This document shows, piece after piece, positions 15,160 through 43,582 of a DNA stretch of 64,000 bases. The position numbers and the translations under genes are program-made. Position 1 is the first letter of the stretch, and the number at the start of each line of letters is the position of its first letter. This DNA comes from Botryllus schlosseri (Eukaryota): positions 21,454,001-21,518,000 of the forward strand of contig CM119371.1 of the NCBI GenBank assembly GCA_051294905.1. The letters run 5' to 3'. Below the pieces are notes generated by a model. That model saw only the letters and a program-made list of their open reading frames with translations. It did not search any database and was not told the origin of the DNA.

Positions 15160-15890
15160 CCGAACACATCCCAGACATGATGTCCGAACACGCCCCAGAC
15201 ACGATGTCCTAGCGTCAACTCAGTCCTAACACACCCCAGACATGATGTTCAAACACGCGCCAGACACGATATACGAGTGTCAATACAGGCCTGACACGCC
15301 CAAGACACCATGTATGAATGGCAACACAGACCGAACACGCCCAAGACACGATGTCCGAGTGTCAACTCAGATCCGAAAACAACCCAGACACCATGTTTGA
15401 ATGGCCGAACATGCCCCGGACGCGATGTCAGATTGGCAGCACAGGCCGAACACACCCCAGACATGATGTCCAAACACGCCGCAGATACGATGTCCGGGTA
15501 TCAACACAGGCCGAACACACCCAAGACACCATGTCGGAATGGCAACACGGACCGAACACGCCCCAGACACGATGTCCGAGTGTCAACTACGTCCGAACAC
15601 GACCCAGATACCATTTTTGAATGGCCGAACACGCCCCAGACACGATGTCCGATTGCCATCACAGGCCGAACACACCCCAGACATGATGTTCAAACACGCC
15701 TCAGACACGATGTCCGAGTATAAACACAGGCCGAACACGCCCAAGACACCATGTCCGAATGGCAACACAGCCCGAACACGCCTCAGACACCATGTTTGAA
15801 TGGCAATAGCACAGGCCGAACACGCCCCAGACACCATGTCCGAGTATCAACACAGGCCGAACTCGCCCAAGACACCATGTCCGAATGAAT
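15160..15890 (+). repeat. GC-rich minisatellite (left arm), ~21/38-bp units
   Basis: Repeated CCGAACACGCCCCAGACAC motif; source of the spurious ORFs in this interval. Confidence 0.9.
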
Positions 15891-17719: not shown

Positions 17720-19228
17720 AGCAGGTTTTTCTTAAAGAATTTAACGAAACGTCAGAAACAACATATGAAGATGAGTTATTTACAGTGGGCACAGGAACAG
17801 AAATGCACGACTTCAATGTTACGGCATGTGATAAGAATCCTATGGTTATGAAACACTTGAAACGTTGCAGGTTAGCAAATTTTTCCTAAAAATACTTGGG
17901 TACAGGCCCAAAAATGCACGAATTCCATGTTTCAGCAACGGATATGACTCGGAGGATATGAAACACTTCAAACAGTACAGGTTAAAACATACAATAAAAT
18001 CAAGAGCAATGCAACAATGCAGGTTAGCAAGTTCTTACTAAAAATTTAACGAAACAAAAAAAAGGTCAGAAACAACGAATGAAGATAAGTTATTTACAGT
18101 TGGCACAGGAACAGAAATGCACGAATTCAATGTCACGGCATGTGATAAGAATCATATGGTTATGAAACACTTGAAACGTTGCAGGTTAGCAAATTTTTCC
18201 TAACAATTCTTGAGTGCAGGCCCAAAAATGCAGGAATTCAATGTTTCAGCAGCTGATATGACTCTAGATCAGGGGTGGGCAAACTACGGCCCGCGGGCCG
18301 CATGCGGCCCTCCACACCGTCCTGTGCGGCCCGCGAGAGTCTGAAGAAATTTACAAAATATTGATAAAATGCATACTAATAATCGAATTAATGCAGGCAC
18401 TTGATTAAACTTTTCCACGATAATTCTCAGGCAGTGGTGAAAAATTTTTTGCGCTTCGCGCGATCCTCATCTCGTTCATAATTCTTGCTTTGCATTTAGT
18501 CTGAATTTCATATTTGAAAATCTCCCATCCACAGTCTTAACCTTCAATGGCACCAAACTGATGCTAAACATCACAGAAATCCTAAACGAGATTGCTATAA
18601 TTCGGATCACGAGGGTGATGTCAGATCGGCCACCCCAGTTTTAATTATATCAGTGATGTGCTTATTAAAAACGATCTCGTAGATACGATCTCTGTATGCG
18701 TGGAATTAGGGTATTTGTATTTTAGCTAGACATACCAGAAGCGTGTTGGAGGCTGACATGGTTATGATGCAGTCAGCATTATGTGTCCTGGAACTGAACC
18801 AAAAGTGGAATTATTAAATCTATGAGCAGATCGCTTTTCACAGATTTAAATTTCAATCCTGTTCTAAGAATCGGGAAAACCGACTTTTATTTCTATAGTT
18901 TTGACAAATTGGCTATTGAGGTCGACCAGCCTATGAAATCAAGCCACTGTTTCTGACGCGTGTACGATATCATCAAAGCAATGTTTGGTTTGTTTTAAAT
19001 AAGCATATATATGATCTCCATATCCTCACTATATCATCGAATACCAATATGGTGTCTTGGTTTATAATCCCAATTTTACATAGTGCGGCCCGCGAACGGA
19101 TTCAGATGTTGAATGCGGCCCGCGAGCTCAAAAGTTTGCCCACCCCTGCTCTAGATGTTATAAAACACTTCAAACAGTGCAGGTTAAAATATAAAATAAA
19201 ATCAAGAGCAATGCAACAATGTAGGTTG
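17720..19228 (+). repeat. ~310-bp tandem duplication with internal subrepeat, interrupted by hAT 18270-19148
   Basis: 17720-18020 is repeated at 18020-18269 plus 19157-19228. Confidence 0.75.
18270..19148. mobile_element. Charlie/Buster-like non-autonomous hAT
   Basis: CAGGGGTGGGCAAAC / GTTTGCCCACCCCTG; TSD CTCTAGAT. Confidence 0.95.
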
Positions 19229-20460
19229 AGGTGTGTTCGGCCTGTGCTGCCAATCGGACATCGTGTCTGGGGCATGTTCGGCCATTCAAACATGGTGTCT
19301 GGGTTGTGTTCGGATCTGAGTTGACACTCGGACATCGTGTCTGGGGTGCGTTCGGTCTGTGTTGCCATTCAGACATGGTGTCTTGGGCGTGTTAGGCCTG
19401 TATTAACACTCGGACATCGTGTCTGGCGCGTGTTCGGACATCGTGCCTGGGGAGTGTTCAGACATCATGTCTGGGGGGTGTTCGGTCTGTGTTGCCATTC
19501 AGACATGGTGTCTTGGGCGTGTTCGGCCTGTGTTGACACTCGGACACTGTGTCTGAGGCGTGTTCGGACACCATGTCTGGGGTGCGTTCGGCCTGTGTTG
19601 CCAATTAGACATCGTGTGTGGAGCGTGTTCGGTCTGTGTTGTCATTCAGACATTATGTCTGGGGCGTGTCGGCCTGTGTTGACACTCGGACATCGTGTCT
19701 GCGCCGAGTTCAGACATCATGTCTGGGGCGTGTTCGGCCTGTGCTATAGCCATTCAAACATGGTGTCTGAGGCGTGTTCGGTCTGTGTTGCCATTCGGAC
19801 ATGGTGTTTTGGGCGTGTTCGGCCTGTGTTTATACTCGGACATCGTGTCTGAGGCGTGTTTGAACATCATGTCTGGGGTGTGTTCGGCCTGTGATGGCAA
19901 TCGGACATCGTGTCTGGGGCGTGTTCGGCCATTCAAAAATGGTGTCTGGGTCGTGTTCGGACGTAGTTGACACTCGGACATCGTGTCTGGGGCATGCTCG
20001 GTCTGTGTTGCCATTCAGACATGGTGTCTTGGGCGTGTTAGGCCTGTATTGACACTCGGACATCGTGTCAGGCGCGTGTTTGGACATCATGTCAGGGGTG
20101 TGTCCGGCCTGTGCTGCCAATCGGACATCGTGTCTGGGGCGTGTTTGGACATCATGTCTGGGGTGTGTTCGGCCTGTGCTGCCAATCGGACATAGTCTGT
20201 GGGGTGTGTTCCGCCATTCAAACATGGTGTCTGGGTTGTGTCCGGACTGAGTTGACACTCGGATATCGTGTCTGGGGTGTGTTCGGCCTGTGTTGCCATT
20301 TGGACATGGTGTCTTGGGCGTGTTAGGCCTGTGTTGATACCCGGACATCATGTCTGGGGCGTGTTTGGACATCATGTCTGGGGTATGTTAAGACTGTGTT
20401 GACGCTAGGACATCGTGTCTGGGATGTGTTCGGACACCATGTCTGGGATGTGTTCGGACT
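19229..20460 (-). repeat. GC-rich minisatellite (right arm), inverted
   Basis: Repeated GTGTCTGGGGCGTGTTCGG motif. Confidence 0.9.
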
Positions 20461-20477
20461 TGGTTACCACTGGGAAG

Positions 20478-22095
20478 CAGTGTTGGGATGACTCGAGTCA
20501 TGACTTGACTCGAGTCAGACTCGAGTCACCTTTTTCGTATGACTTGACTTGACTCGAGTCACTTTGCTAAAATGACTTTACTTGACTTGACTCGGGGTAT
20601 CAGAAATGTGGATTGACTCGTGACTCGGAGCAAAATTCACGAGTCAATTTCAAGTCATCAAGTAATCGGTATCGATAAAAATCACTGTATCTTGCATATG
20701 GTCGGATTGTTCGCGAAACGCCAGCGTAACCCGTGAGAGTGAGCAATCATTGAATGATTCAATGATTTAATGAGCCTCCATTGTTCTCTCACAAATAAAT
20801 TAACCGCAAACGAGGTGATCGAAGCTTACAGCTTACGTTGTCGTAAACTAATTTAGTAAAGTAATTTAATAGCAAAATGTCTATTTCTGTTCTTGCCTTA
20901 ATCAAACCTTTTTTTTATATTGAATTCGAATATAGTTTATAGCCGATAGTTCTCAACCATTGGCACGGGCTGAAATTGCATCATATCAATTTGTAAGTGA
21001 GTAATGTATTGCATCTTATCAATTCGTTTCTCTATTCTGCTGGGAACTATAAACTGAGGCTATGCAATTACTTACGTAGTTTAACAGATCTACATATATG
21101 TGAGCGATACAGCGTGTATATTAGGGCTCTTCAAAAATGACTTTTTTCTCTAATCGTATTGGCTACTTGACAAAATTGTTAGGTTACCTAATTTAAGCCT
21201 ACACACAAAATTTGGTTCAATTCCAGCCAGTAACCGCTTTGCTACAAGTGAAGAAAGTTTCTATTTATTATATAAAAATAAATAATAAAAAAATTTGAAA
21301 ATTTTCTGTACACCCCATGAAAGTGTTTGGCTGTCTATAGAAACAATGCTCACCAAATTTGGTTCAATTCCAACCAGTGGAAGCGGAGTTATGGCCGTCG
21401 AAAAATTTGGATTTGAATAAAATAGTATTTACGGTGACCGATTCTTTGTTTATTTATTAAAGTTGTGCTAACCGTAAATACTATTTTATTCAAATCCAAA
21501 TTTTTCGACGGCAATAACTCCGTTTCCACTGGGAGGAATTGAACCAAATTTGGTGAGCATCATTTCTATAGACGGCCTAATACTTTTATGGGGTGAACAG
21601 AAAATTTTCAAATTTTTTATTATTTATTTTTATATAATAAATAGAAACTTTCTTCTCCTTAGCAAAGCGGTTACTGGCTGGAATTGAACCAAATTTTGTG
21701 TGTAGGCTTAAATTAGGTAACCTAACAATTTTATCAAGTAGCCAGTACGATTTGAGAAAAAAAGTCATTTTTGAAGAGCCCTAGTGTATATTTAACTCTA
21801 CATTTATTCATCGATTCACAATCAATGACCACTCAATCTGTATTTCAGACAGCTAGCAAAATGCAATGACCTAATCATGCCCCACTTTGAAAAGGCAACT
21901 TGACTTGAATTGTGACTTGACTCGTGACTTGACTTGACTTGACTCGACTTGACTCGAGTCACCTCCAAAAATCGGGTGACTTGACTTGACTCGAGTCACC
22001 TTCGAAAATCAATTGACTTGACTTGACTCGAGTCAAAATATGCAGTGACTCGAAATGACTCGTGACTCGAAGGTAGTGACTTGATCCCAACACTG
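20478..22095. mobile_element. hAT element with (TGACT)n subterminal arrays
   Basis: CAGTGTTGGGAT / ATCCCAACACTG; TSD CTGGGAAG. Confidence 0.95.
21122..21783. mobile_element. Second full copy of the TAGGGCTCTTC foldback MITE
   Basis: Highly similar to 11146-11806; TSD GTGTATAT. Confidence 0.95.
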
Positions 22096-25274: not shown

Positions 25275-27079
25275 CAGTGCTTTTCAACCTGTGTGACGGT
25301 TCGCACTTGTGCGAATGAAAAAAATTGCAGTGCGAATGACGAAGGTGGTGCGAACGGTGCGAATGAAAATCCCGGATGAGTGCGAATGAAAATCGCGAAT
25401 GATAATTGTTAATTTTTCTGACCTGAAATATTTCAAATAGACCTAATAGGAAATTCAAGGGCAGTGTAACTTTTGTTGTTGCGACGCAATTGTAAAAAGT
25501 ACAGTATCATCCCGTCCGAGCCTGCGACAGGCTGAAAAAATGACGTCGAATTGACTTCCTGCTTTCCTTCGCTAAACAATCTTTCGTAATAACTGTTCGA
25601 TTAGTGCGAGACACGAGGATGGTAGTAAATAACATCATTGAAGACTCGCATTTGCAAGTTTTTGTAACGCAGATTTTTACCCCTTCAAGGGTTATGAAGG
25701 TATGGACCGCAAAGGGTATAATTTTTGGTGGACACGGTGCCAGAGCTATCTGTTAATGTGTATGTGATATTTGTTAAATTCATTGCAAAAAACCTGCGAT
25801 ATAGTTTTTACAAATCTAAGGTCACGGTGTTTGGTACTGTAGCCAGAAAATATGGCTTTATCATGATAAGATTTGTCCGACTGGTAAACATGGTCGATGA
25901 TGACCGTTGGGATGAACTAGTGTAGGGACTAGAGATGTGCAACGAGCGAGTTCAGGTCTGTGACACTCAGCCAGCCAGCCAGCCAGCCCCTTTTGCGTCG
26001 GGTTACATGAAGACGTAAAGTTCTGGTCAACAAACCTCTGATGTAAATGCGGTGCTAAAACATCGACAAAACCTTGGTCGAAAATGACCTATGCTGGATG
26101 GCCAAACCATTCGATATGGATATTCTCCGTTGTCGGCAGTGAATAGTCCCGTTCTTGCAATCTGAGTAGACTGCAGTAATACAACTGCGACACGTAGAGG
26201 AATTTAATTCACCCTAATTTGAGATCGCGTGCGTCATACATATTTTGTAGAGCTGTGTTGGATAGAATTGTGGTGTGCGCGTTCTGTATGTCATACATGT
26301 CCCATTGTCCGTAAAATCTTAACATATACTACTGTAATATTAAAAATGAATTCTTTTTCATGGGTGAGGCTCTGGTCGTGAGATGCGACAAAAACTCAGA
26401 TTTTGGTGTTAGTCCAAAAAGCTGCATTGACGTTATTAAACTGTTATGAATTCTCAAGTTAGATTAAGCTCAAGAGCAGAACACAGAGTATTGTGAGTTC
26501 AGTTGCTCTTCCCACATACTCGCGAGACAGAAAATGGGAATTCGAAAAAAAAGTTGGAGCAACTTATCATAAGGTAGCGAGCTCTAATATGCCTACTCTC
26601 CTTCATTGTTTGGACCTTATTTTCCAAAACATAATGCAAAAGCCTCAACACAAACAAGTGGGTTTTTCACCCTTTCGACATACTGGAGCCTAATAGAACT
26701 TTTTGTCAGCGCTCAAAATCGATTTCTTCCAGCAAGCATTTTTTAATTGTGAAAAAATACGTTGTATTTTGGATAGGAGTGCAGAACAGATTCTAAGACC
26801 TTGCCATCCAAGCACTAATAGACGTTCTTGTACAAAACCCAACAACGTGTTTGGACTGAAAGGGTTTTAGTGAAATTTTTGAAATCGAAACGAGCGAAAA
26901 TAGTAGCCTTTTTAATGAGACACTTGATAGCTTAAGACACACCAATTTGTTGCAAATCCGATCAAATAAATGTTGTATTTTCATATTCTTTCTGTATAAC
27001 AATTTTCGGTTTGTTTGTGCAAATGAAATTTATTTTACGAAAAAGTGCGAATGAAGCTTAAAAAGGTTGAAAAGCACTG
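25275..27079. mobile_element. hAT element with TGCGAATGA subterminal repeats; its right TSD is displaced by the 16-kb insertion
   Basis: Perfect TIR CAGTGCTTTTCAACC / GGTTGAAAAGCACTG; TSD ACCCAGTC at 25267-25274 and 43157-43164. Confidence 0.9.
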
Positions 27080-27233
27080 ACAGTATTATAGCCTGTCTTT
27101 ATACCCCCTCCAATCAGCGTCGAGTATTTGATCACGTGACATCTGTTAGCCAATCAGAATGCAGAAGGATGTGGGTTTGGTTCCAATACGAGAGAGGTTT
27201 TGGTTGAGCGAGAGATAGCATAGCTCCAGTCCA

Positions 27234-27680
27234 GTAACGCTGAGATATTTATTACGTCATTGCGTAAGTTGATTACCTATGATTGCGTATTGCAGCATGT
27301 TCATGATTGCGTCACATGCGTAGTTGATTACTTTATTTATTACGAGAGCGGCTTTGCTTAGTTCCACGTGTAACGCTGAGATATTTATTACGTCATTGAG
27401 TAAGTTGATTACCTATGATTGCGTATTGCAGCATGTTCATGATCACGTCATATGCGATTACTTTAGTTATTACGAGAGCGGCTTTGCTTAGTTCCAGTAA
27501 TGCTCAGATATGATTACGTTATGATTGCGTCTAGTTCCAGTCCAATAACACTGAGAAACACGTTAATACGATTGTGTAGTTGAAGCATGTTCATGATTAC
27601 GTCGTATGTGTAGTTGATTACTTTAGTAACACCGAGATATGATTACGTTAATATTGCGTTGATTGCCTTTGCAGTTGAAG
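27234..27680 (+). repeat. Subterminal tandem repeats (~130-bp x2 plus decayed units) rich in bZIP-like motifs; mirrored at ~42550-42997
   Basis: GTAACGCTGAGATATTTATTACGTCA... at 27234 and 27369; TTACGTCA, TTGCGTAA and TCACGTCA motifs. Confidence 0.85.
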
Positions 27681-27749
27681 CAAGTGCAAGGTAATATATA
27701 ACGTATAATATTTATTACATGATTATTCGCTGTAGGCTGTAGATTGAAT

Positions 27750-28037
27750 ATGTCAAAGATTACTGCTAATGATATATACGTCATAATGGATCGAATTGAC
27801 CTGATGAACTGGTATAGGTTTGCACGTGAAAAACTTGAGCTATCTGACAATGAAATTGCCGAATGTCAATACATGGATTGCTATAACTTAACTGAGCAAC
27901 GATATCAAATGATACAGTTATGGATTCGTAAAAATGGTCGTTACGCTACGATGAACAAACTTGAAGAATTAGTTCACAGCTGTCAGATACCTTCGAATAG
28001 CAATTCAAATGCTCTGTTGAAAGACATAACGTACTAA
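27750..28037 (+). CDS. Stand-alone death-domain protein (95 aa), left arm
   Basis: WYRFAREKLELSDNEI...LTEQRYQMIQLWIRKNGRYATMNKL matches the DD pattern W..(L/F)AR.L.LS..EI...L.EQ.YQML..W....G..AT...L. A likely 5'UTR intron lies at ~27691-27742. Confidence 0.85.
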   Translation: MSKITANDIYVIMDRIDLMNWYRFAREKLELSDNEIAECQYMDCYNLTEQRYQMIQLWIRKNGRYATMNKLEELVHSCQIPSNSNSNALLKDITY

Positions 28038-30890
28038 GAGGAGAATTGCGCGGACTAGTGAATAATGAAGATGCTCTCAGAAGACTTCAATATCGATGAA
28101 AATGGCTAATTTCACGTAAAATCATAAGATATTCTAATCATTGAAATCATGTAGATTATAACAGTGAACGTCTTTTGTACAAACTAATTCTTCAACAAGA
28201 TAATCAACAATTTAACGAAAACTCAAATAGATATTCACAAAGCAACAATATTAAAAAAAAGATGTTCACCGTTATAAGCCACAATGATGTCAATGAATAT
28301 AGAAAAAATATTAATAATATTAATACTCCTCAGTTAGAATGAAATATTTTAAAAGATTCAAATCATGTTTTGATTCTTATAATAACGTAAGCTAATTATT
28401 TTCATCAACATCACAAGATAATTGATAAATTAACTAAATAATAAATAAGATATTCACAAAGCAGCAATATTAATAAAATAATCAGTGGTAACAACACATG
28501 GAAATGGCTAATTTCACGCAATATTATAAGATATTCATATTACTAGGTAATTTTTTGATATTATTACGTTGATTTGTGTGTCAATATTAGTGTAAAATGA
28601 AAGCATTTTGTAGTGCATACGCTAAGGTACTGCGACACTATCCATTAACCAAGAAGGTATTCAGTTAATTCCCTATAGAGCACAGCTGTTGTCACAATGA
28701 AATGTTGACTATCGAATGAAGTTTATTATTGTGTATTGATAGGATACACCTTCATGAGGTTGCAAGGTATTTGAATTTTGTGTAGCGCTAATTCTAATTA
28801 AACTTGGAGCTTGTTGTACAAAAGATGTTCACCGTTATAAGCTACAATGATTTCAATGAATAATGAAAGAAATAATAATAATCATTAATATTCCAAAGTT
28901 GGAACCAAAGTAATAATACTTGAAAAATGAAATATTTTAAACATATTTAAATCCAGTAAATTGTACTTCTACTCCAAGTAGCAATTCGCCTACTGACTGG
29001 AATTTAATCGAATTTGGTATGCCGCAATCATAGAGAAAAAGTAGATTTTCTCAAATATTTGATGTAGGTATTTATTGTTAGCTGCTGTTATAGGGATATT
29101 TCGCAATAGCAGTGCATTCGTATCACCGACTGTTTGCGGTCAAAGGAGATCGCTATAGACCAATAAATTACTTATAGCGGAAATGATGTTGAGCTGTACC
29201 AACGTAGTTAACTATCAAGTTCATCGTTATACACAATGATTTATCATTGATTAATTATCCACTTCGATTCGAGAGTTCAATTGCAAATTTTTAATCATTT
29301 AGTACCATCTTTCATCAAATTCTATAAGTCTTGCATTATATTGAAATCCCAGAACAACTAGAAATATGTATTAAAAATCCAGTGACGTAAACATTTTGAT
29401 AGCACTGTGTAAATGACATATCGCAATATTATCACCCTACTCGCCTCACATATGTCTCACTAAACAATGCATTCGCTATTTAGTATTAATATTGTTCCAC
29501 GCATTAGCCTGCAAATGTAGTATAATATAATGAGATAAGATTGTTTGATATGCAGGTCGCGCATGAAGCAGATCTCTCCACCCTGTACTATAGTAATGTG
29601 TTAGATGTGTGCTCAAATGTTTATTGTGAATAAGACCAGTTACGCTCCAGCTACCGTGTTGGTTAACCCGTTGTGAAATTTCTGCGGCCATATCTTCACC
29701 GTCACACTTATACTCTACGCGAACGCTATATTGTAGCTTAATTTCTTTATGTAGTACGTGCAAACATATGATGTGTGTCTCTCAATTTCCTTTCAAAATC
29801 CATATGATACAACAGCTGGCCTCTACAGGGAATTAACTGAATACATTCTTGACCAATGGATCGTGTCGCAGTACCTTACCCTATGCACTACAAAATGCTA
29901 TCATTTTACACAGTAATAATGAGACACAAACCAAAGTAATGATATCAGAAAATTGCCTAATAATATGAATATCTTAAGATTTTTGCGTGAAATTAGCCAT
30001 TTTCTAGTGTTGTTATTGTTTCACTAGCACTGATTTTTCTAATAATATTGTTGCTTTGTGAACATCTTATTAATTTTTTAGTTAAAGTATCAATTATCTT
30101 GTGTTGTTGATGAAAATAATTAGCTTGTACAAAAGACGTTCACTATTAAAATATACACGATTTCAATGATTATTAAAAAATAAGCTGATGCAAGTTTCCA
30201 GAATGCTGATGCTAACTATGCTGTTGGAGCCTTTCCAAATAGCAATACGCAGTACAGTTATCGCAGATGGATGCAAAATAGTCCTAATTCTCAACAATTT
30301 GAATTGTCTCGAAATCACACTTATTGCGATATCAAATCCCCGCATTTAGTTGTATTTAGGGCTATTGCACAAGCTATCTCCAATATGCTGCAATATAGAG
30401 AGGTTCAAACTTGTCTAGGGTATTCACTTCCCGTCAACTAGCTTTTAAAGACACATTGATAAGCGCGCCTATTTAATTACCTAATTTTCTTGACTGTCTT
30501 CGAATATTTCATCGACTATCATAAGGAACATTCGCTCATCGCTCATCATTCGCTCATCATATATATATTACATTGACTTTAATATCACTATAACGGAACT
30601 ATAACGAAATATGATGTGTATGAGAGCTGTCGGTGTAAATCAAGAAGTAAGCATATAATAGGTGTATGTAGCAGGTTTTCACCATAATGTAGGGTGCTTA
30701 TCAACAATTTTTGTATATCGAATGTTTGTAGCTCTAGGAAGATATTCGTATTGGAGACTACGATTATATCTTCAAGAATATCAACATAACCAGCATATCA
30801 ACCAGAACTTTTAGGTTCGTTTTCCGATAGAAACCTCGGAAATATCTCATCATAAGCAGCGTATTACGCTTACTCTTGGCTGTTCCATCA

Positions 30891-31057
30891 AGCTCCGTAC
30901 ACCTTGATCTTTTCGGATACATTGGCATTGCGGAATATGCAACGTTCAGCATTGGATGAACATTCCTAACAAAGGCATAGGTGTCCCCAGGGAACCAAGC
31001 TAACTTCGCTTCTATTCTTTTACATTGTTTGCAAAGCACGGTATTTTGTAATTCCAT
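30891..31057 (-). pseudogene. IAP-type RING-HC finger pseudogene, left arm
   Basis: Mirror of 39174-39340. Confidence 0.7.
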
Positions 31058-31694
31058 GAGACTTCAGTGGTTCTAGAATACAAAATTATTGAGAGTCGAA
31101 TAAACTGTCAATTAACTAAGCATAAAGTATATGATATTCAAAAATATTTAAAGGTTACGTCGTTGAACAACCCCGATATGATCATACAGCGAAAGTATAG
31201 CCCCAAATAGCGCTAATATCTCCCAAGCATAAACAATAACGTGGTCGAAATGTACGTTTTATTGCAAATTTATCTCTAAACAGAATGAGCTGTAGCTTAT
31301 CACATTCGAATTACTGAGTGAAATTGACATAGAACTATTAGGTCAAGCCGAAACATCTTCACTTCAGTTATCATTCCCATGGGGCTACTAGTTATAGCAG
31401 AGGCGGGCAAACTGCGATTCGCGCCTGTAGCACTTTATTGATTTCACGTGCGTTTCGCTATTTTGTTAAAGAAGTTCAACCTGATTATATGTTAATGCAT
31501 CTATAGCGTATTAGAAATATGCGAATGGTGGCCCTATACAGCCTTCGAAATTAGCAATTGAACTCTCGAATTCAACCTGATCATCAATCAATGACAAATC
31601 ATTGTTTTCAACGCTATTTTTTGTGGTTCACTGACTCACAACCTTTAGTGACCCGCAGAGCACTTACGTTAGTTGAACTTTGGCCTCAGTTGGA

Positions 31695-32287
31695 CTGTAG
31701 ATTACTAACCTACGGATAGATACGCAAGTCCCGTCGTTACGCTCCGACAAGCAGTTACACTTGTTGCTGAGCAATCCAAAAGAAGCATAATTGGTGGAGT
31801 TATAGCTTGCGTCCCGAGGGCTGAAATGTAATGAAACTGGTCTTAATCGAGAGCTACTGCCTCACTGATTCCGAAAATACAAATTCAAATCGTGCCGGGG
31901 ATATGGAACCACCTCAAAACATCTCTCAAAATCTGAAAATCGACATAGTTCCAACAATGGCACCACCGCAACAGGATGAACATAACAATGGCCAATTTCG
32001 TCAAGCGATTGTTCAGAGCAATTTCGATTTTCAGACTTTGAGGGATGGTTTGACATGGTTCCATTTCCTGACAAGATTTTAATTTGTATTCTCAGAATCA
32101 GTGCGACAGTAGCTCTCGATTAAGAGACCAGTTTCAATAAATTTCACCTCTCAGGTCGCAAGTTGTAATACCACCAATTATGGTGCTTTTAGATTGCTGA
32201 GCAATAAGTGTAACTGCTTGCCGGAGCGTAACGACGGGACTTGCGTATCTATCCGTAGGTTAGTAATCTATAGTTTTACCACCCCTG
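31695..32287. mobile_element. MITE with ~200-bp TIRs inside the left arm (mirrored at ~37943-38536)
   Basis: 31695-31895 is inverted against 32068-32272; hAT-like ACCACCCCTG right end. Confidence 0.75.
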
Positions 32288-32451
32288 CTCTAAACCATAA
32301 CCATAACAACTTGAGTAAGTACTGTCACTAGGCAAACCCTAGCAGAGTTATGCTCAAATTATATCAAATATTGCATGGAATATGGCAAATGAACACGCCA
32401 AGTATTATCAAGTGAAGGAAAACGAACGCCTAATTCCCTCTAGATACATAT

Positions 32452-34818
32452 TTATTCGGAAAATCTCCCATTACAGGGTGAGTACAGTTGATTTCTCAAG
32501 GTCTTCCTATCTTCCCCACTTAAGCGCGGTAAGACTAGTTTGACTTCGCGGCATTCAGGATTATATCTCACGAAGCTCTGAATGGAATTCACGTATTTCA
32601 CGTCGACTATCGTTCTGTTGCTATCACTGAGGTCGATTGCCTTTAGCTGTTCATTGAATAATAGGCGATTTAGATCAATTTAAAAAATACAGAAACGAAC
32701 TGCATCGCTACATCGGGATCTACTATTGAGCAGAAAGATCTTACTGTAGCGCATCGCTTTCCCGTCTCTTCGCTCAGATTCCTGATTTGCATGGAAAGCA
32801 TCTTGCAATTACTCAGATTAAATTCTTCCACACGGGAATTGCACAGGACTTTAGTTAGTGTTTTGTAGCAGGATGAAATGCCAGGATTTCTACTTAAATC
32901 CAGCGAGTGCAGCTAAAACATGGTGTAATGTTCAAATATTTTACGAGACTACAAATGACTCGACACCTGTAATAGATTAGTCATAATATTATTTATCAAC
33001 AGTTGAGCAATTTTCGCGATGTCTGCTCCTAATAGCAAAACTGATGCAACACCGAAGACAATAATGAAGCTCGAAAGGTTATTGAAGAAACCATCTAAAC
33101 TAGATTTAAAATGAATGAACGATTGAAAAAACCTCTTGCTTAGAAGCAGTGATAGTATTTATTTTCAGACGTGATCAGAAACACTTTATTGATGATAAAA
33201 GTTCTATCGATCGATGAAATGTCATGCTTGAGTATGACTGAAACTCACATAAGCATTAGACTGTGATTGATTATTTCAGTTACAAAACATAACGGATCTA
33301 GTTCAAATGATCACCTCATGAATTCCGAGACCTTTATTTAATAAGATTAGTGAGTCTTCGTCCAATTCGCAAGCTGAAAGTCGAACGTTTTTCGTGTTAT
33401 GCTTTCTTACAAAGCATCCAACTTCTTTCAAACCTGTCGGTTCCATATCCGTATTATAACTCAGATCAAGGTTTTCGACCTACAATTACAGTAATTTATT
33501 TCAAAATGACACACAAAACTATAGAAACGAGTGAGTACCTCGATAGAAGCAAAACTTTCAAAAGCGCGAATTTCCTCTGGTGTAAGGTCACACCCCTTCA
33601 TGATAAGAGTAACCGCTTTGTCTTTACAAAGTAAGGCAGGCAGCGCGGTCATACACTCTTCATCCAGCTGATTGTAGCTGATGTCAAGATATTGGAGCTG
33701 AACAAATATAGGAAACTGTCAATTTACGATCAGCATTGATCAGATATAAAACATTTCAAACTGATAACAGAAAAAAAATGTTGATTAGCCACTCACGTCA
33801 TAATATACGCGAAATGTGCTAAGAGTAAACTAGAATTTCCTCTATCCATCCATCTCTGTACAATCGCTCACACAGAATGTGATCATTAACGACTATACCC
33901 AGCAATAATCGCACATACCTTACTGTTTTTGAGCTGTAGAGCAACGAAATCTTTTGACTGCAAGTGCGAGTTCACAAGTGACAAATAGGTTAGATCGTTC
34001 GAAATAATAGTCGCGAGTTGCGTAAAGTTAATGTTTTCCCCGTAGCTGAGATTGAGGTTTCGTAATTTCACCTATGGGAACGAGGTATTAGGAAACCTCA
34101 CTTCGAGAGGTTCTATACTAGATTAGCGCCTAGCTTTTCCCATCATCAATACCTGATGCCGCCTGATAAGTTGATCCAAAATGATTAGAAAATCTTCGGA
34201 TCCATCACTTTCTTCCAGATTGAGCTCCGTCAAACCACACTCCTTCATCAACTCGCATATTACTGGGAGGAGGTTTTCAATGTTGTCGTGTGCTGTAACG
34301 CTGAGTTTTCTTATTTCGACCTGAACGAGCGCAAAACTTCACACATAAAATGCTAAATGAGCTATGAACAGTTTAACACTGATCAACTTTAGCTATAGCC
34401 TATCTAATAAGGCTATTGAGACTGATTCCTATACAAGTAGCAATTGAGCATTGTTCGCTACGTTACCTTCAATTCTCGCCTTAACACATCAGTAATAGGG
34501 AACAACGCGATTACGATAAAAGTTTTTTTAAAGTCGTATCTGAATACTTATATTGAACGTGAATTTATAATGATCAGTGACTACGAGTGAATGTGTGAAG
34601 GCGTTTACCACAAATTCAAATCCACGAATTTTATCCAGTAGAATCTTTACGAGGTTTTCATTGAGATCGCATTGGCGAAATTCTAACTCATACACGCGAC
34701 ATTGCTGAATAAGACCATTCGCGATATTATGTATATCCAATTCAGTCGTAGTTTGGTCATAGAGCCCATAAGGAATATTCACGTCATCATGATCCGTAAG
34801 TACTAATTGATGGTACAT
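32452..34818 (-). CDS. 7-exon RI/NLR-type leucine-rich repeat protein, left arm
   Basis: Mirror of 35412-37778 with a few substitutions. Confidence 0.8.
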
Positions 34819-35098
34819 CCTCTTTTCAGCTTAAGGATGTAAACTAAAAAATGTTGTATGCCGCCCTGATGAGTTTAATTATAATATACTTATAATGGTA
34901 CAGTGATTTTTCAATAACGAAACTCTTTTACAGCATGAGCAGAATAATTTCATAATAAACATAAAATACCTGCTGTCGATGATTTGTACTAATTTGCGGC
35001 GCGTTCAATTAACTCATGCGGCTCAAAAATATAGTAAGCATGGCGATTGGTATTCGTTGAGTTGAATAAACATTAAAAACAATATATTTCCGCGCCCT

Positions 35099-35131
35099 CC
35101 TAAACCTAATTCCTCCTAACCCTACAACCCA
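35099..35131. other. 33-bp non-palindromic loop at the palindrome centre, CCCTAA-like
   Basis: CCGCGCCCT[CCTAAACCTAATTCCTCCTAACCCTACAACCCA]AGGGCGCGG. Confidence 0.9.
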
Positions 35132-35411
35132 AGGGCGCGGAAATATATTGTTTTTAATGTTTATTCAACTCAACGAATACCAATCGCCATGCTTACTATA
35201 TTTTTGAGCCGCATGAGGTAATTGAACGCGCCGCAAATTAGTACAAATCATCGACAGCAGGTATTTTATGTTTATTATGAAATTATTCTGCTCATGCTGT
35301 AAAAGAGTTTCGTTATTGAAAAATCACTGTACCATTATAAGTATATTATAATTAAACTCATCAGGGAGGCATACAACATTTTTTAGTTTACATCCTTAAG
35401 CTGAAAAGAGG

Positions 35412-37778
35412 ATGTACCATCAATTAGTACTTACGGATCATGATGACGTGAATATTCCTTATGGGCTCTATCACCAAACTACGACTGAATTGGATATACA
35501 TAATATCGCGAATGGTCTTATTCAGCAATGTCGCGTGTATGAGTTAGAATTTCGCCAATGCGATCTCAATGAAAACCTCGTAAAGATTCTACTGGATAAA
35601 ATTCGTGGATTTGAATTTGTGGTAAACGCCTTCACACATTCACTCGTAGTCACTGATCATTATAAATTCACGTTCAATATAAGTATTCAGATACGACTTT
35701 AAAAAAACTTTTATCGTAATCGCGTTGTTCCCTATTACTGATGTGTTAAGGCGAGAATTGAAGGTAACGTAGCGAACAATGCTCAATTGCTACTTGTATA
35801 GGAATCAGTCTCAATAGCCTTATTAGATAGGCTATAGCTAAAGTTGATCAGTGTTAAACTGTTCATAGCTCATTTAGCATTTTATGTGTGAAGTTTTGCG
35901 CTCGTTCAGGTCGAAATAAGAAAACTCAGCGTTACAGCACACGACAACATTGAAAACCTCCTCCCAGTAATATGCGAGTTGATGAAGGAGTGTGGTTCGA
36001 CGGAGCTCAATCTGGAAGAAAGTGATGGATCCGAAGATTTTCTAATCATTTTGGATCAACTTATCAGGCGGCATCAGGTATTGATGATGGGAAAAGCTAG
36101 GCGCTAATCTAGTATAGAACCTCTCGAAGTGAGATTTCCTAATACCTCGTTCCCATAGGTGAAATTACGAAACCTCAATCTCAGCTACGGGGAAAACATT
36201 AACTTTACGCAACTCGCGACTATTATTTCGAACGATCTAACCTATTTGTCACTTGTGAACTCGCACTTGCAGTCAAAAGATTTCGTTGCTCTACAGCTCA
36301 AAAACAGTAAGGTATGTGCGATTATTGCTGGGTATAGTCGTTAATGATCACATTCTGTGTGAGCGATTGTACAGAGATGGATGGATAGAGGAAATTCTAG
36401 TTTACTCTTAGCACATTTCGCGTATATTATGACGTGAGTGGCTAATCAACATTTTTTTTCTGTTATCAGTTTGAAATGTTTTATATCTGATCAATGCTGA
36501 TCGTAAATTGACAGTTTCCTATATTTGTTCAGCTCCAATATCTTGACATCAGCTACAATCAGCTGGATGAAGAGTGTATGACCGCGCTGCCTGCCTTACT
36601 TTGTAAAGACAAAGCGGTTACTCTTATCATGAAGGGGTGTGACCTTACACCAGAGGAAATTCGCGCTTTTGAAAGTTTTGCTTCTATCGAGGTACTCACT
36701 CGTTTCTATAGTTTTGTGTGTCATTTTGAAATAAATTACTGTAATTGTAGGTCGAAAACCTTGATCTGAGTTATAATACGGATATGGAACCGACAGGTTT
36801 GAAAGAAGTTGGATGCTTTGTAAGAAAGCATAACACGAAAAACGTTCGACTTTCAGCTTGCGAATTGGACGAAGACTCACTAATCGTATTAAATAAAGGT
36901 CTCGGAATTCATGAGGTGATCATTTGAACTAGATCCGTTATGTTTTGTAACTGAAATAATCAATCACAGTCTAATGCTTATGTGAGTTTCAGTCATACTC
37001 AAGCATGACATTTCATCGATCGATAGAACTTTTATCATCAATAAAGTGTTTCTGATCACGTCTGAAAATAAATACTATCACTGCTTCTAAGCAAGAGGTT
37101 TTTTCAATCGTTCATTCATTTTAAATCTAGTTTAGATGGTTTCTTCAATAACCTTTCGAGCTTCATTATTGTCTTCGGTGTTGCATCAGTTTTGCTATTA
37201 GGAGCAGACATCGCGAAAATTGCTCAACTGTTGATAAATAATATTATGACTAATCTATTACAGGTGTCGAGTCATTTGTAGTCTCGTAAAATATTTGAAC
37301 ATTACACCATGTTTTAGCTGCACTCGCTGGATTTAAGTAGAAATCCTGGCATTTCATCCTGCTACAAAACACTAACTAAAGTCCTGTGCAATTCCCGTGT
37401 GGAAGAATTTAATCTGAGTAATTGCAAGATGCTTTCCATGCAAATCAGGAATCTGAGCGAAGAGACGGGAAAGCGATGCGCTACAGTAAGATCTTTCTGC
37501 TCAATAGTAGATCCCGATGTAGCGATGCAGTTCGTTTCTGTATTTTTTAAATTGATCTAAATCGCCTATTATTCAATGAACAGCTAAAGGCAATCGACCT
37601 CAGTGATAGCAACAGAACGATAGTCGACGTGAAATACGTGAATTCCATTCAGAGCTTCGTGAGATATAATCCTGAATGCCGCGAAGTCAAACTAGTCTTA
37701 CCGCGCTTAAGTGGGGAAGATAGGAAGACCTTGAGAAATCAACTGTACTCACCCTGTAATGGGAGATTTTCCGAATAA
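35412..37778 (+). CDS. 7-exon RI/NLR-type leucine-rich repeat protein (~405 aa), right arm
   Basis: Phase-0 GT-AG exons 35412-35621, 35910-36077, 36159-36311, 36533-36691, 36751-36915, 37318-37485 and 37584-37778. Motifs include LRNLNLSYG, LQYLDISYNQL, VENLDLSYN, LHSLDLSRNP and LKAIDLSDS. Internal exons are 51-56 codons. Confidence 0.85.
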
Positions 37779-39173
37779 ATATGTATCTAGAGGGAATTAG
37801 GCGTTCGTTTTCCTTCACTTGATAATACTTGGCGTGTTCATTTGCCATATTCCATGCAATATTTGATATAATTTGAGCATAACTCTGCTAGGGTTTGCCT
37901 AGTGACAGTACTTACTCAAGTTGTTATGGTTATGGTTTAGAGCAGGGGTGGTAAAACTATAGATTACCAACCTACGGATAGATACGCAAGTCCCGTCGTT
38001 ACGCTCCGGCAAGCAGTTACACTTATTGCTCAGCAATCTAAAAGCACCATAATTGGTGGTATTACAACTTGCGACCTGAGAGGTGAAATTTATTGAAACT
38101 GGTCTCTTAATCGAGAGCTACTGTCGCACTGATTCTGAGAATACAAATTAAAATCTTGTCAGGGAAATGGAACCATGTCAAACCATCCCTCAAAGTCTGA
38201 AAATCGAAATTGCTCTGAACAATCGCTTGACGAAATTGGCCATTGTTATGTTCATCCTGTTGCGGTGGTGCCATTGTTGGAACTATGTCGATTTTCAGAT
38301 TTTGAGAGATGTTTTGAGGTGGTTCCATATCCCCGGCACGATTTGAATTTGTATTTTCGGAATCAGTGAGGCAGTAGCTCTCGATTAAGACCAGTTTCAT
38401 TACATTTCAGCCCTCGGGACGCAAGCTATAACTCCACCAATTATGCTTCTTTTGGATTGCTCAGCAACAAGTGTAACTGCTTGTCGGAGCGTAACGACGG
38501 GACTTGCGTATCTATCCGTAGGTTAGTAATCTACAGTCCAACTGAGGCCAAAGTTCAACTAACGTAAGTGCTCTGCGGGTCACTAAAGGTTGTGAGTCAG
38601 TGAACCACAAAAAATAGCGTTGAAAACAATGATTTGTCATTGATTGATGATCAGGTTGAATTCGAGAGTTCAATTGCTAATTTCGAAGGCTGTATAGGGC
38701 CACCATTCGCATATTTCTAATACGCTATAGATGCATTAACATATAATCAGGTTGAACTTCTTTAACAAAATAGCGAAACGCACGTGAAATCAATAAAGTG
38801 CTACAGGCGCGAATCGCAGTTTGCCCGCCTCTGCTATAACTAGTAGCCTCATGGGAATGATAACTGAAGTGAAGATGTTTCGGCTTGACCTAATAGTTCT
38901 ATGTCAATTTCACTCAGTAATTCGAATGTGATAAGCTACAGCTCATTCTGTTTAGAGATAAATTTGCAATAAAACGTACATTTCGACCACGTTATTGTTT
39001 ATGCTTGGGAGATATTAGCGCTATTTGGGGCTATACTTTCGCTGTATGATCATATCGGGGTTGTTCAACGACGTAACCTTTAAATATTTTTGAATATCAT
39101 ATACTTTATGCTTAGTTAATTGACAGTTTATTCGACTCTCAATAATTTAGTATTCTAGAACCACTGAAGTCTC

Positions 39174-39342
39174 ATGGAATTACAAAATACCGTGCTTTGC
39201 AAACAATGTAAAAGAATAGAAGCGAAGTTAGCTTGGTTCCCTGGGGACACCTATGCCTTTGTTAGGAATGTTCATCCAATGCTGAACGTTGCATATTCCG
39301 CAATGCCAATGTATCCGAAAAGATCAAGGTGTACGGAGCTTG
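39174..39342 (+). pseudogene. IAP-type RING-HC finger pseudogene, right arm
   Basis: MELQNTVLCKQCKRIEAKLAWFP, then a 1-nt frameshift to GHLCLC*ECSSNAERCIFRNANVSEKIKVYGA*. This is a C-terminal IAP-like RING with a frameshift, a TAG stop and loss of the last Cys. Confidence 0.75.
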
Positions 39343-42193
39343 ATGGAACAGCCAAGAGTAAGCGTAATACGCTGCTTATGATGAGATATTTCCGAGGTTT
39401 CTATCGGAAAACGAACCTAAAAGTTCTGGTTGATATGCTGGTTATGTTGATATTCTTGAAGATATAATCGTAGTCTCCAATACGAATATCTTCCTAGAGC
39501 TACAAACATTCGATATACAAAAATTGTTGATAAGCACCCTACATTATGGTGAAAACCTGCTACATACACCTATTATATGCTTACTTCTTGATTTACACCG
39601 ACAGCTCTCATACACATCATATTTCGTTATAGTTCCGTTATAGTGATATTAAAGTCAATGTAATATATATATGATGAGCGAATGATGAGCGATGAGCGAA
39701 TGTTCCTTATGATAGTCGATGAAATATTCGAAGACAGTCAAGAAAATTAGGTAATTAAATAGGCGCGCTTATCAATGTGTCTTTAAAAGCTAGTTGACGG
39801 GAAGTGAATACCCTAGACAAGTTTGAACCTCTCTATATTGCAGCATATTGGAGATAGCTTGTGCAATAGCCCTAAATACAACTAAATGCGGGGATTTGAT
39901 ATCGCAATAAGTGTGATTTCGAGACAATTCAAATTGTTGAGAATTAGGACTATTTTGCATCCATCTGCGATAACTGTACTGCGTATTGCTATTTGGAAAG
40001 GCTCCAACAGCATAGTTAGCATCAGCATTCTGGAAACTTGCATCAGCTTATTTTTTAATAATCATTTAAATCGTGTATATTTTAATAGTGAACGTCTTTT
40101 GTACAAGCTAATTATTTTCATCAACAACACAAGATAATTGATACTTTAACTAAAAAATTAATAAGATATTAACAAAGCAACAATATTATTAGAAAAATCA
40201 GTGCTAGTGAAACAATAACAACACTAGAAAATGACTAATTTCACGCAAAAATCTTAAGATATTCATATTATTAGGCAATTTTCTGATATCATTACTTTGG
40301 TTTGTGTCTCATTATTACTGTGTAAAATGATAGCATTTTGTAGTGCATAGGGTAAGGTACTGCGACACGATCCATTGGTCAAGAATGTATTCAGTTAATT
40401 CCCTGTAGAGGCCAGCTGTTGTATCATATGGATTTTGAAAGGAAATTGAGAGACACACATCATATGTTTGCACGTACTACATAAAGAAATTAAGCTACAA
40501 TATAGCGTTCGCGTAGAGTATAAGTGTGACGGTGAAGATATGGCCGCAGAAATTTCACAACGGGTTAACCAACACGGTAGCTGGAGCGTAACTGGTCTTA
40601 TTCACAATAAACATTTGAGCACACATCTAACACATTACTATAGTACAGGGTGGAGAGATCTGCTTCATGCGCGACCTGCATATCAAACAATCTTATCTCA
40701 TTATATTATACTACATTTGCAGGCTAATGCGTGGAACAATATTAATACTAAATAGCGAATGCATTGTTTAGTGAGACATATGTGAGGCGAGTAGGGTAAT
40801 AATATTGCGATATGTCATTTACACAGTGCTATCAAAATGTTTACGTCACTGGATTTTTAATACATATTTCTAGTTGTTCTGGGATTTCAATATAATGCAA
40901 GACTTATAGAATTTGATGAAAGATGGTACTAAATGATTAAAAATTTGCAATTGAACTCTCGAATCGAAGTGGATAATTAATCAATGATAAATCATTGTGT
41001 ATAACGATGAACTTGATAGTTAACTACGTTGGTACAGCTCAACATCATTTCCGCTATAAGTAATTTATTGGTCTATAGCGATCTCCTTTGACCGCAAACA
41101 GTCGGTGATACGAATGCACTGCTATTGCGAAATATCCCTATAACAGCAGCTAACAATAAATACCTACATCAAATATTTGAGAAAATCTACTTTTTCTCTA
41201 TGATTGCGGCATACCAAATTCGATTAAATTCCAGTCAGTAGGCGAATTGCTACTTGGAGTAGAAGTACAATTTACTGGATTTAAATATGTTTAAAATATT
41301 TCATTTTTCAAGTATTATTACTTTGGTTCCAACTTTGGAATATTAATGATTATTATTATTTCTTTCATTATTCATTGAAATCATTGTAGCTTATAACGGT
41401 GAACATCTTTTGTACAACAAGCTCCAAGTTTAATTAGAATTAGCGCTACACAAAATTCAAATACCTTGCAACCTCATGAAGGTGTATCCTATCAATACAC
41501 AATAATAAACTTCATTCGATAGTCAACATTTCATTGTGACAACAGCTGTGCTCTATAGGGAATTAACTGAATACCTTCTTGGTTAATGGATAGTGTCGCA
41601 GTACCTTAGCGTATGCACTACAAAATGCTTTCATTTTACACTAATATTGACACACAAATCAACGTAATAATATCAAAAAATTACCTAGTAATATGAATAT
41701 CTTATAATATTGCGTGAAATTAGCCATTTCCATGTGTTGTTACCACTGATTATTTTATTAATATTGCTGCTTTGTGAATATCTTATTTATTATTTAGTTA
41801 ATTTATCAATTATCTTGTGATGTTGATGAAAATAATTAGCTTACGTTATTATAAGAATCAAAACATGATTTGAATCTTTTAAAATATTTCATTCTAACTG
41901 AGGAGTATTAATATTATTAATATTTTTTCTATATTCATTGACATCATTGTGGCTTATAACGGTGAACATCTTTTTTTTAATATTGTTGCTTTGTGAATAT
42001 CTATTTGAGTTTTCGTTAAATTGTTGATTATCTTGTTGAAGAATTAGTTTGTACAAAAGACGTTCACTGTTATAATCTACATGATTTCAATGATTAGAAT
42101 ATCTTATGATTTTACGTGAAATTAGCCATTTTCATCGATATTGAAGTCTTCTGAGAGCATCTTCATTATTCACTAGTCCGCGCAATTCTCCTC

Positions 42194-42481
42194 TTAGTAC
42201 GTTATGTCTTTCAACAGAGCATTTGAATTGCTATTCGAAGGTATCTGACAGCTGTGAACTAATTCTTCAAGTTTGTTCATCGTAGCGTAACGACCATTTT
42301 TACGAATCCATAACTGTATCATTTGATATCGTTGCTCAGTTAAGTTATAGCAATCCATGTATTGACATTCGGCAATTTCATTGTCAGATAGCTCAAGTTT
42401 TTCACGTGCAAACCTATACCAGTTCATCAGGTCAATTCGATTCATTATGACGTATATATCATTAGCAGTAATCTTTGACAT
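42194..42481 (-). CDS. Stand-alone death-domain protein, right arm
   Basis: Mirror of 27750-28037 with one D/N difference. Confidence 0.85.
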   Translation of the reverse strand: MSKITANDIYVIMNRIDLMNWYRFAREKLELSDNEIAECQYMDCYNLTEQRYQMIQLWIRKNGRYATMNKLEELVHSCQIPSNSNSNALLKDITY

Positions 42482-43582
42482 ATTCAATCTACAGCCTACA
42501 GCGAATAATCATGTAATAAATATTATACGTTATATATTACCTTGCACTTGCTTCAACTGCAAAGGCAATCAACGCAATATTAACGTAATCATATCTCGGT
42601 GTTACTAAAGTAATCAACTACACATACGACGTAATCATGAACATGCTTCAACTACACAATCGTATTAACGTATTTCTCAGTGTTATTGGACTGGAACTAG
42701 ACGCAATCATAACGTAATCATATCTGAGCATTACTGGAACTAAGCAAAGCCGCTCTCGTAATAACTAAAGTAATCGCATATGACGTGATCATGAACATGC
42801 TGCAATACGCAATCATAGGTAATCAACTTACTCAATGACGTAATAAATATCTCAGCGTTACACGTGGAACTAAGCAAAGCCGCTCTCGTAATAAATAAAG
42901 TAATCAACTACGCATGTGACGCAATCATGAACATGCTGCAATACGCAATCATAGGTAATCAACTTACGCAATGACGTAATAAATATCTCAGCGTTACTGG
43001 ACTGGAACTATGCTATCTCTCGCTCAACCAAAACCTCTCTCGTATTGGAACCAAACCCACATCCTTCTGCATTCTGATTGGCTAACAGATGTCACGTGAT
43101 CAAATACTCGACGCTGATTGGAGGGGGTATAAAGACAGGCTATACTACTACTACTGACCCAGTCAATCCGAAATCGAGTAACTGTACGAGAAGGTCGCAC
43201 CAAACCAAATCGCAATCTTCAGTCACGAATCATTAACAGGTCATGTTTTGTCATCATGAACTAGAAATGTCACGTATTAGCTGATCTTCTACCGCATGGC
43301 AGCTTGTAAAAGTGATCTGATAGAGAAGTTTGTTGACATTTCAGTGATTTTTATTGCAGTTTGAGCGTGAACTGCAAGCTGTCACATCTAAAGAATAGAT
43401 ATGGCACTTCAATATATCGTTGAATACTTGGTGACGTCATGGCTTTAAAAAACATAAATAGCATAAAAAACATATTTTAAATTAGGGCCCTTGTTTTAAA
43501 TGAAACCATAACTATATGGATGCAGACGTAGCCTATACGCCGGAATACTAGCGATACATGTTAGCCGTATCACTCCTTAAGG

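Follow-up and report, generated by a model that had tools for sequence, protein, structure and literature searches.

Why should two intact, intron-bearing leucine-rich repeat (LRR) genes face away from each other, head to head, on either side of the axis of a long palindrome in the Botryllus schlosseri genome? The question is raised by a stretch of 64,000 nucleotides (assembly GCA_051294905.1, contig CM119371.1, positions 21,454,001–21,518,000 of the forward strand; hereafter the window, whose coordinates are used throughout unless another contig is named). The window is AT-rich (GC content 0.31–0.46) and holds two stop-to-stop open reading frames (ORFs) of at least 150 aa, both inside one repeat array (19226–20482). 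Within it lies a palindrome whose arms of ~8,017 nt each (27082–35098 and 35132–43149) are separated by a 33-nt loop (35099–35131) and align with 18 mismatches and one single-base gap over 8,018 positions (99.76% identity). From the outside in, each arm consists of an AGTAGTA terminal repeat, an inward-pointing Death-only gene, filler with nested repeats, a hairpin and an LRR-only gene directed outward from the axis. The answer proposed here is that the LRR pair is probably cargo at the centre of a non-autonomous Maverick/Polinton-type element, palindromic over almost its entire length, that carries two host-derived domain-only genes.

The palindrome is a discrete mobile element, and at this site a very young one. 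It occupies 27082–43152 (16,071 bp) between two copies of the target-site duplication ACTGAC (27076–27081 and 43153–43158), so that its junctions read ACTGAC/AGTATTATAGCC...GGCTATACTACTACT/ACTGAC. The left terminal inverted repeat with its subterminal repeats (End A, 27082–27500, plus strand) starts with AGTATTATAGCC, and the right one (End B, 42600–43152, minus strand), which contains subterminal tandem units of ~130 bp, ends in GGCTATACTACTACT. A sister copy on contig C11 (14114012–14131026) differs from it by two mismatches in ~16 kb (one in 12,680 nt and one in 3,400 nt) and has the same termini, yet sits in unrelated flanks and is bracketed by a duplication of its own (CATTTC/AGTAGTAGTATAGCC...GGCTATAATACTACT/CATTTC); End A of the window element is exactly one AGT shorter than that of the sister.

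The same architecture recurs elsewhere in the genome. AGTAGTA opens 17 of the 18 ends at the ten loci examined, and six of eight complete elements are flanked by perfect 6-bp duplications (ACTGAC in the window, CATTTC on C11, CACATT on C10, CGATTG at C1a, AACGGT on C9 and GTGCCA on C2); for the remaining two, the duplication is alike at five of six bases (C3) or missing (C6). The terminal 419 nt find 87 genome matches at 73–100% identity (82–100% for the longer ones), at least 13 of them as +/− pairs 10–32 kb apart. Lengths within the family range from 10 to 17 kb and terminal inverted repeats from 0.3 to 8 kb, the upper value being the whole arm of the window element. Both the structure and the mobility of the palindromic element can be stated with high confidence.

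The ends also suggest what kind of element this is. Maverick/Polinton elements measure about 15–20 kb, have terminal inverted repeats of hundreds of bp and end in (AGT)2/(ACT)2 or (AG)3/(CT)3 motifs. In the available text of PMC8097293, the commonest signature of vertebrate Mavericks combines 5'-(AGT)2//(ACT)2-3' ends with perfect 6-bp duplications; the elements described here have (AGT)2/(ACT)2-type ends, 6-bp target-site duplications and long terminal inverted repeats. Compared with Maverick/Polinton elements as that part of PMC8097293 presents them (citing Kapitonov and Jurka 2006), the window element is devoid of the roughly eight core genes (pPolB, integrase, ATPase, protease, capsid proteins), has an inverted repeat that makes up 99.8% of its length, and carries cargo that is host-derived and intron-bearing. 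Because it contains no Maverick gene, it is at most a non-autonomous Maverick derivative, not a Maverick proper; it probably depends on Mavericks for its movement. The length of the duplication alone does not single out Polintons, since Ginger2 elements have 6-bp targets too; the TGTNR ends of Ginger2 (PMC2836005), however, are absent from the elements of the window family.

An earlier reading made from the sequence alone had described an intact, head-to-head pair of LRR-only genes at the axis, and both arms indeed carry an open, seven-exon, phase-0 coding sequence for a protein of 405 aa. The exons of the right-arm gene (35412–37778, plus strand) lie at 35412–35621, 35910–36077, 36159–36311, 36533–36691, 36751–36915, 37318–37485 and 37584–37778; every exon length is a multiple of three, every intron is GT..AG, and the 1218-nt coding sequence comprises 405 codons and a TAA, which is overlapped by an AATAAA at 37774–37779. 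Its left-arm counterpart (32452–34818, minus strand) has exons at 34609–34818, 34153–34320, 33919–34071, 33539–33697, 33315–33479, 32745–32912 and 32452–32646. The two proteins differ at three residues (H21D, S100L and V276L), and there are no synonymous differences between the genes. The in-frame TAA reported upstream of the ATG at 35412 is present at 35397–35399, five codons before it. Further upstream, a candidate leader intron (35261–35386, plus strand), which may alternatively be an outron whose spliced-leader acceptor lies 25 nt ahead of the start codon, keeps its GT (35261) and AG (35385–35386) in 12 of 12 intact copies, although it ends one base earlier than had been proposed and no read spans its junction; its mirror image, placed by symmetry at 34844–34969 (minus strand), likewise has no supporting reads. 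For the proposed symmetric central promoter, the reads reveal no transcript start, and constraint is lowest in the 5' region (17 variants in 217 nt).

Splicing of the gene family is supported by exon–exon joints. Contigs of run X17, presumed to be RNA, carry the joints 36311/36533, 36691/36751, 36915/37318 and 37485/37584, that is predicted introns 3–6 (four of six) joined exactly as expected and all GT..AG, and none of these four joints occurs in DNA run X1. In the raw RNA run X23, 34 reads aligned, 32 of them partially. The LRR gene family is also constrained. Among 15 copies extracted from eight loci, 12 have the full open 1218-nt coding sequence and all splice sites, and three are 5'-truncated by rearranged centres. 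All 12 intact copies have a coding sequence of exactly 1218 nt, whereas their gene spans range between 2367 and 2383 nt. Variants are scarcer in exons, with 41 in 1218 nt, than in introns, where there are 68 in 1149 nt (p = 0.003, Fisher test). The coding variant sites comprise 17 synonymous and 26 non-synonymous ones, corresponding to a ratio of non-synonymous to synonymous change (omega) of ~0.42 without transition bias (P = 0.005) and 0.52 with the bias derived from introns (P = 0.027). Five of the 26 non-synonymous sites cluster in the last 13 residues.

The protein consists of 13 LxxLxLxx(N/C) units with a mean period of ~27.5 residues, ten of which were found by motif scan and three (residues 101, 259 and 371) read by eye; exons 3–7 each start at a beta-strand motif. 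Its class, as assigned from motifs and from sub-threshold matches of single exons and exon units, is probably that of ribonuclease inhibitor (RI)/NLR-type LRRs, with which it shares the ~28-residue period, the LxxLxLxx(N/C) consensus, two repeats per phase-0 exon, an N-terminus of cytosolic appearance and a paralogue next to a NACHT exon. Unlike NLRs, the gene has neither a NACHT nor an effector domain, as the sequence-only reading had noted, but the arm as a whole also holds the Death-domain ORF. An in-frame stop precedes the LRR ATG, and none of the 94 host NACHT matches scored (out of 224 candidates) falls inside the window or the elements examined.

The paralogue in question is unpaired and lies on the minus strand of contig C16, with exon order and span like those of the element gene: exon 1-like at 8629288–8629488 (51% aa identity), exon 2-like at 8628821–8628982 (76%) and exon 7-like at 8627228–8627389 (61%). 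On the same strand, 4.4 kb upstream of it, an open frame of 460 aa contains a NACHT match (8633881–8634387). Judged from these alignments, the LRR gene has a homologue in the LRR portion of a NACHT-linked gene of the host, and the proximity of this paralogue to a NACHT exon supports an origin from the LRR region of a NACHT-LRR gene whose introns were retained. The capture of a host NLR-like gene together with its introns, which had been suggested at the outset, is thus plausible. Among 5.8 billion predicted proteins, queries with exon 4, a profile of exons 2–7 and exon 1, each run against longer proteins, returned no member of the LRR family and a single weak RanGAP-like match (P0001), probably since the repeat family is masked before gene prediction.

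The second cargo gene is an inward-pointing ORF of 95 aa, one per arm, located ~650 bp from the terminus. The left-arm ORF (27750–28034, plus strand) and the right-arm one (42197–42481, minus strand, within the open frame 42197–42508) both begin at an ATG and are 99% identical mirrors of each other. The product matches Pfam family PF00531 with an E-value of 9.5e-11 (42.1 bits against a cut-off of 22.6), and its predicted model has a confidence score (pLDDT) of 76; the top ten PDB fold matches of this model are all death domains, the best being those of FADD, TNFR1, ankyrin-G, RIPK1 and RAIDD (TM scores 0.57–0.67). There are 146 genomic matches to the Death ORF, mostly open, and many form +/− pairs 9–15 kb apart that bracket LRR pairs.

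The relatives of this ORF point to caspases. Its closest relative outside the elements (61% identity) forms the N-terminal part of a 569-aa open frame on C8 (2400960–2402495) that also has a caspase domain, and the same C8 cluster contains four more frames, of 521–553 aa, with the same Death plus caspase build; in contrast, Death domains adjoining host NACHT exons are only ~35% identical to that of the element. In a search of 1.84 billion protein representatives, the best match is an 83-aa Death-only protein (92% identity), and the next four (P0003, P0004, P0005 and P0008), which are the best from outside the family, combine Death with Peptidase_C14 and include a Styela clava 'caspase-1-A-like' protein. 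By homology, then, the Death ORF is a relative of the pro-domain of host Death-caspases. Taken with the LRR gene, the nearest host relatives of the cargo, as identified by similarity, are the sensor end (an NLR LRR) and the effector end (a Death-caspase pro-domain) of one kind of pathway.

A second repeated unit, seen at 11 or more loci, consists of a Death-like ORF and, 15.6–21 kb away in the same orientation, an ORF of 257 aa with a caspase domain (for example C1:36371515/36392876, C16:14445972/14429888 and C2:30487368/30503021). Its Death-like ORF is 53–55% identical to that of the element and has one internal TAG; the unit may represent a further large mobile element with a caspase as its cargo.

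Both cargo genes belong to a large family. As a DNA query the LRR gene has 65 genome matches, and as a protein query its exon 1 has at least 150 (the best 150 of 168 candidates). By a hand count of the matches listed, ~121 exon-1 copies are near full length at 65–100% aa identity, one of them with stops, and they fall into tiers of ~26 copies at 94–100%, 50 at 81–87% and 45 at 65–71%; the exon-1 matches listed mostly form −/+ (head-to-head) pairs 0.6–2.2 kb apart. Exons 2 and 7 have 134 and 150 genome matches, of which 12 and 10, respectively, contain stops. The element family thus comprises roughly a hundred or more copies, and both kinds of ORF stay open across its subfamilies.

Within this family, the two arms of a palindrome differ by 0–0.14% in the gene region, as against 0.3–2.7% between distinct loci (the window element and its C11 sister differ by 0.14%). 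The nearest relative of each arm is its own partner arm in five of six independent palindromic loci; the arms therefore evolve in concert.

Other arrangements of the genes also occur. LRR genes lie tail to tail at C12:17220152–17243831 and C2:36230608–36239340, and at the former locus the flanking Death ORFs face outward, an inside-out arrangement. The contig of the window also has an LRR pair of the 65–70% subfamily, at C1:21215808–21222265, which lies upstream of the window by ~0.23 Mb.

Several results weigh against regarding the LRR pair as maintained cargo of a Maverick-type palindrome. On the side of the carrier, the element contains no Maverick gene, all its ORFs are shorter than 150 aa, and Pfam searches with 22 ORFs of the outer arms returned Death only; four other family members also lack long ORFs. 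No autonomous partner was found: genome-wide profile searches for pPolB (PF03175) and adenain (PF00770) were blank, although such blanks are weak, and a search for rve was saturated by retrotransposons, the best 150 of 1389 candidates lying in long retrotransposon-like frames and none of these 150 inside pairs of terminal repeats. On the side of the palindrome, the arm-specific variants of the window (18 arm differences) recur unchanged in the C11 copy; therefore the last move copied both arms as they were, and arm homogenisation is occasional rather than part of every transposition. As to the cargo, exon-wise Pfam searches with LRR_1 reach 18.4 bits against a cut-off of 20.6, and an exon-unit profile places the LRRs of NLRP1, NLRX1 and NLRC4 first in the PDB at sub-threshold E-values of 0.014–0.16 (best ~0.015). 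Omega (~0.4–0.6) is only moderately below 1, with P rising to 0.07 at a kappa of 4, and ~7–9% of exon copies (exons 2 and 7) carry stops. Finally, the transcript evidence consists of contigs of one run, X17, presumed to be RNA; these contigs lack the joints of introns 1 and 2 as well as a transcript start, and carry the Ser276 codon of the family instead of the Val/Leu of the window, so that the transcripts come from sibling copies and not from the window copy.

How such an element might have arisen and what its cargo might do can be outlined as follows. The palindrome would originally have been a snap-back copy made from one end of a linear replicon, a molecule that regains two working ends from one, and autonomous Mavericks would move it in trans by means of their integrase and protein-primed replication machinery; arm-to-arm conversion would then keep it uniform. 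Jump-back priming takes place at terminal repeats, as in adenovirus, and the one-AGT-shorter End A of the window element is the kind of slip that would be expected if a terminal triplet repeat served this purpose. The Death-only protein would cap caspase pro-domains in the way that caspase-1 is capped by CARD-only proteins, a ligand or a partner NLR would be titrated by the LRR-only protein, and either decoy effect would favour the survival of cells with an active element or helper. By analogy with known decoys, it is tentatively possible that the two proteins act as dominant-negative inhibitors of the host NLR-to-Death-caspase pathway. The full combination, in which a snap-back Maverick satellite carries a two-part kit against cell death taken from a host pathway (a caspase pro-domain decoy and an intron-bearing NLR LRR decoy), is more doubtful.

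The cargo could instead serve the host, with LRR-only and Death-only genes acting as immune regulators or sensors that residence in a transposon has multiplied and that are selected for the benefit of the animal. The genome offers a setting for this, with its large NLR repertoire (the 94 scored NACHT matches) and many caspases (70 caspase-domain matches); the ORFs are constrained, and host CARD-only and PYD-only regulators are known, as far as the available text of PMC3775265 describes them. However, ~a hundred near-identical copies confer no obvious host benefit, and both genes travel with the element through subfamilies of 65–100% identity. Moreover, the 26 non-synonymous sites of the 12 intact copies give no sign of a diversifying LRR binding face (beta-face): four of them fall in the LxxLxLxxN windows, against the 29% expected from their share of residues (p = 0.09). 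A role on behalf of the host is judged unlikely.

It is rather improbable that the genes are functionless captured pieces, as in Pack-type transposons, which are intact merely through youth. The 94–100% tier is young, with a divergence of 0–2.7%, and the omega values of 0.4–0.6, which are not very far below 1 (P up to 0.07), the three truncated copies out of 15 and the stops in 7–9% of exon copies are all what passengers might show. Yet frames remain open down to 65% aa identity, since only one of the ~121 near-full-length exon-1 copies listed has stops; variation is lower in exons than in introns (p = 0.003), none of the 12 intact copies has lost a splice site and correctly spliced transcripts are present, and two unrelated cargo genes of one pathway have both been retained.

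Near-perfect palindromes with tiny loops are a known type of assembly artefact, and the C10 and C14 centres contain a 100-N gap, but a fold-back chimera of long reads is effectively excluded by the head-to-head layout at dozens of loci with locus-specific variants common to both arms, by the 19 arm differences reproduced in the C11 copy, by the loop kept in six of seven centres and by the target-site duplications at the ends.

Cargo probably carried by a palindromic Maverick derivative invites comparison with several known systems. The Drosophila elements Foldback and Galileo have very long inverted arms, with 7–9-bp duplications and end sequences other than those found here, and sex-chromosome palindromes undergo arm-to-arm conversion that keeps their arms in concert but are not mobile; the element shares very long inverted arms and concerted arms with these systems. 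Its possible origin has a parallel in snap-back defective genomes, for which the accessible part of PMC13506859 describes how a reverse-complementary copy is made along the entire length, the product being a palindrome of high symmetry. Like such defective viral genomes (PMC13506859) and the snapback genomes of adeno-associated virus (PMC8235507, again according to the text available), the element would be a symmetric palindrome derived from one replicon end and dependent on a helper; unlike them, it is chromosomal, occupies many loci, has target duplications and carries expressed genes. Nematode Mavericks carry cargo genes, as stated in the available portion of Widen et al. (bioRxiv 10.1101/2022.07.12.499685), and likewise are Maverick-type elements that move host-type genes; they are described there as virus-like and equipped with genes of their own, whereas the carrier described here has no viral genes and is palindromic.

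The closest counterparts of the Death-only gene are small death-fold proteins. CARD-only proteins, in the available account of PMC3775265, are decoys without enzymatic activity that originated from a duplicated CARD of caspase-1 and bind the pro-domain of this enzyme, and poxvirus PYD-only proteins inhibit the inflammasome. Like ICEBERG, COP, INCA and poxvirus M013 as treated in that source, the element encodes a single death-fold protein of ~90 aa that is close to a caspase pro-domain, with 61% identity compared with the 53% of ICEBERG to the caspase-1 CARD; unlike the CARD- and PYD-only proteins, it has a Death domain and is transposon-encoded in roughly 90 or more copies. The literature searched contained no palindromic Maverick derivative, no LRR-only or Death-only cargo of a Maverick-type element and no animal transposon that uses a stolen death-fold domain.

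Viruses are known to steal single death-fold domains and thereby to silence inflammasomes and apoptosis. If the full combination of snap-back satellite and anti-cell-death kit is true, an animal transposon would bear an immune antagonist of its own, and the architecture of a defective genome would have been turned into that of a successful genomic parasite. If the two proteins are decoys, the family would be a natural tool kit showing which invertebrate NLRs and Death-caspases police mobile DNA, a matter that bears on the very large NLR families of non-vertebrate deuterostomes. The family also supplies some hundred natural replicates in which to study what keeps long palindromes stable and uniform in a chromosome, and repeat masking before gene prediction probably hides its LRR gene from protein databases.

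The asymmetric loop at the axis (35099–35131) is telomere-repeat-like, consisting of about four or five degenerate TTAGGG repeats with GC clamps on both sides, and is kept in the centres of the window, C11, C14, C9, C6 and C1b elements, the seventh centre examined (C2) being rearranged. In the C9, C10 and C6 centres, the axis region has grown to 1.3–3.2 kb by tandem copies of the first ~380 bp, which include exon-1 fragments with stop codons.

Between the cargo genes lie several repeated parts. A 590-bp hairpin element stands just 3' of the left LRR gene (31694–32274, 82% self-complementary) and another 3' of the right one (37956–38537); the former marks the outer limit of a 3.4-kb core common to LRR-bearing copies, and the latter has the deepest coverage of the whole stretch in runs X16 and X17. 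Further out, a nested unit with inverted ends of ~318 bp occupies 28389–30126 and, as its mirror, 40105–41842. A non-coding block of ~330 bp, split here by a 466-bp insertion (39126–39279 and 39746–39913), is 86–94% identical in the C9, C1a and C3 elements, including family members without LRR genes; no convincing ORF was found in its six frames, and it may be a cis-acting site.

The sister copy on C11 contains an extra insertion of 923 bp, with a 9-bp duplication of its own, at the equivalent of window positions 30473–30481; this insertion is related to window positions 20476–22095, outside the palindrome. Foldback elements of ~690 bp, resembling MITEs (miniature transposable elements with inverted repeats), occur at 11134–11819 and 21120–21790 (92–95% self-complementary), with a more distant relative at 2670–2987, and two satellite-like tandem arrays, at 15130–15887 and 19226–20482, are inverted relative to each other.

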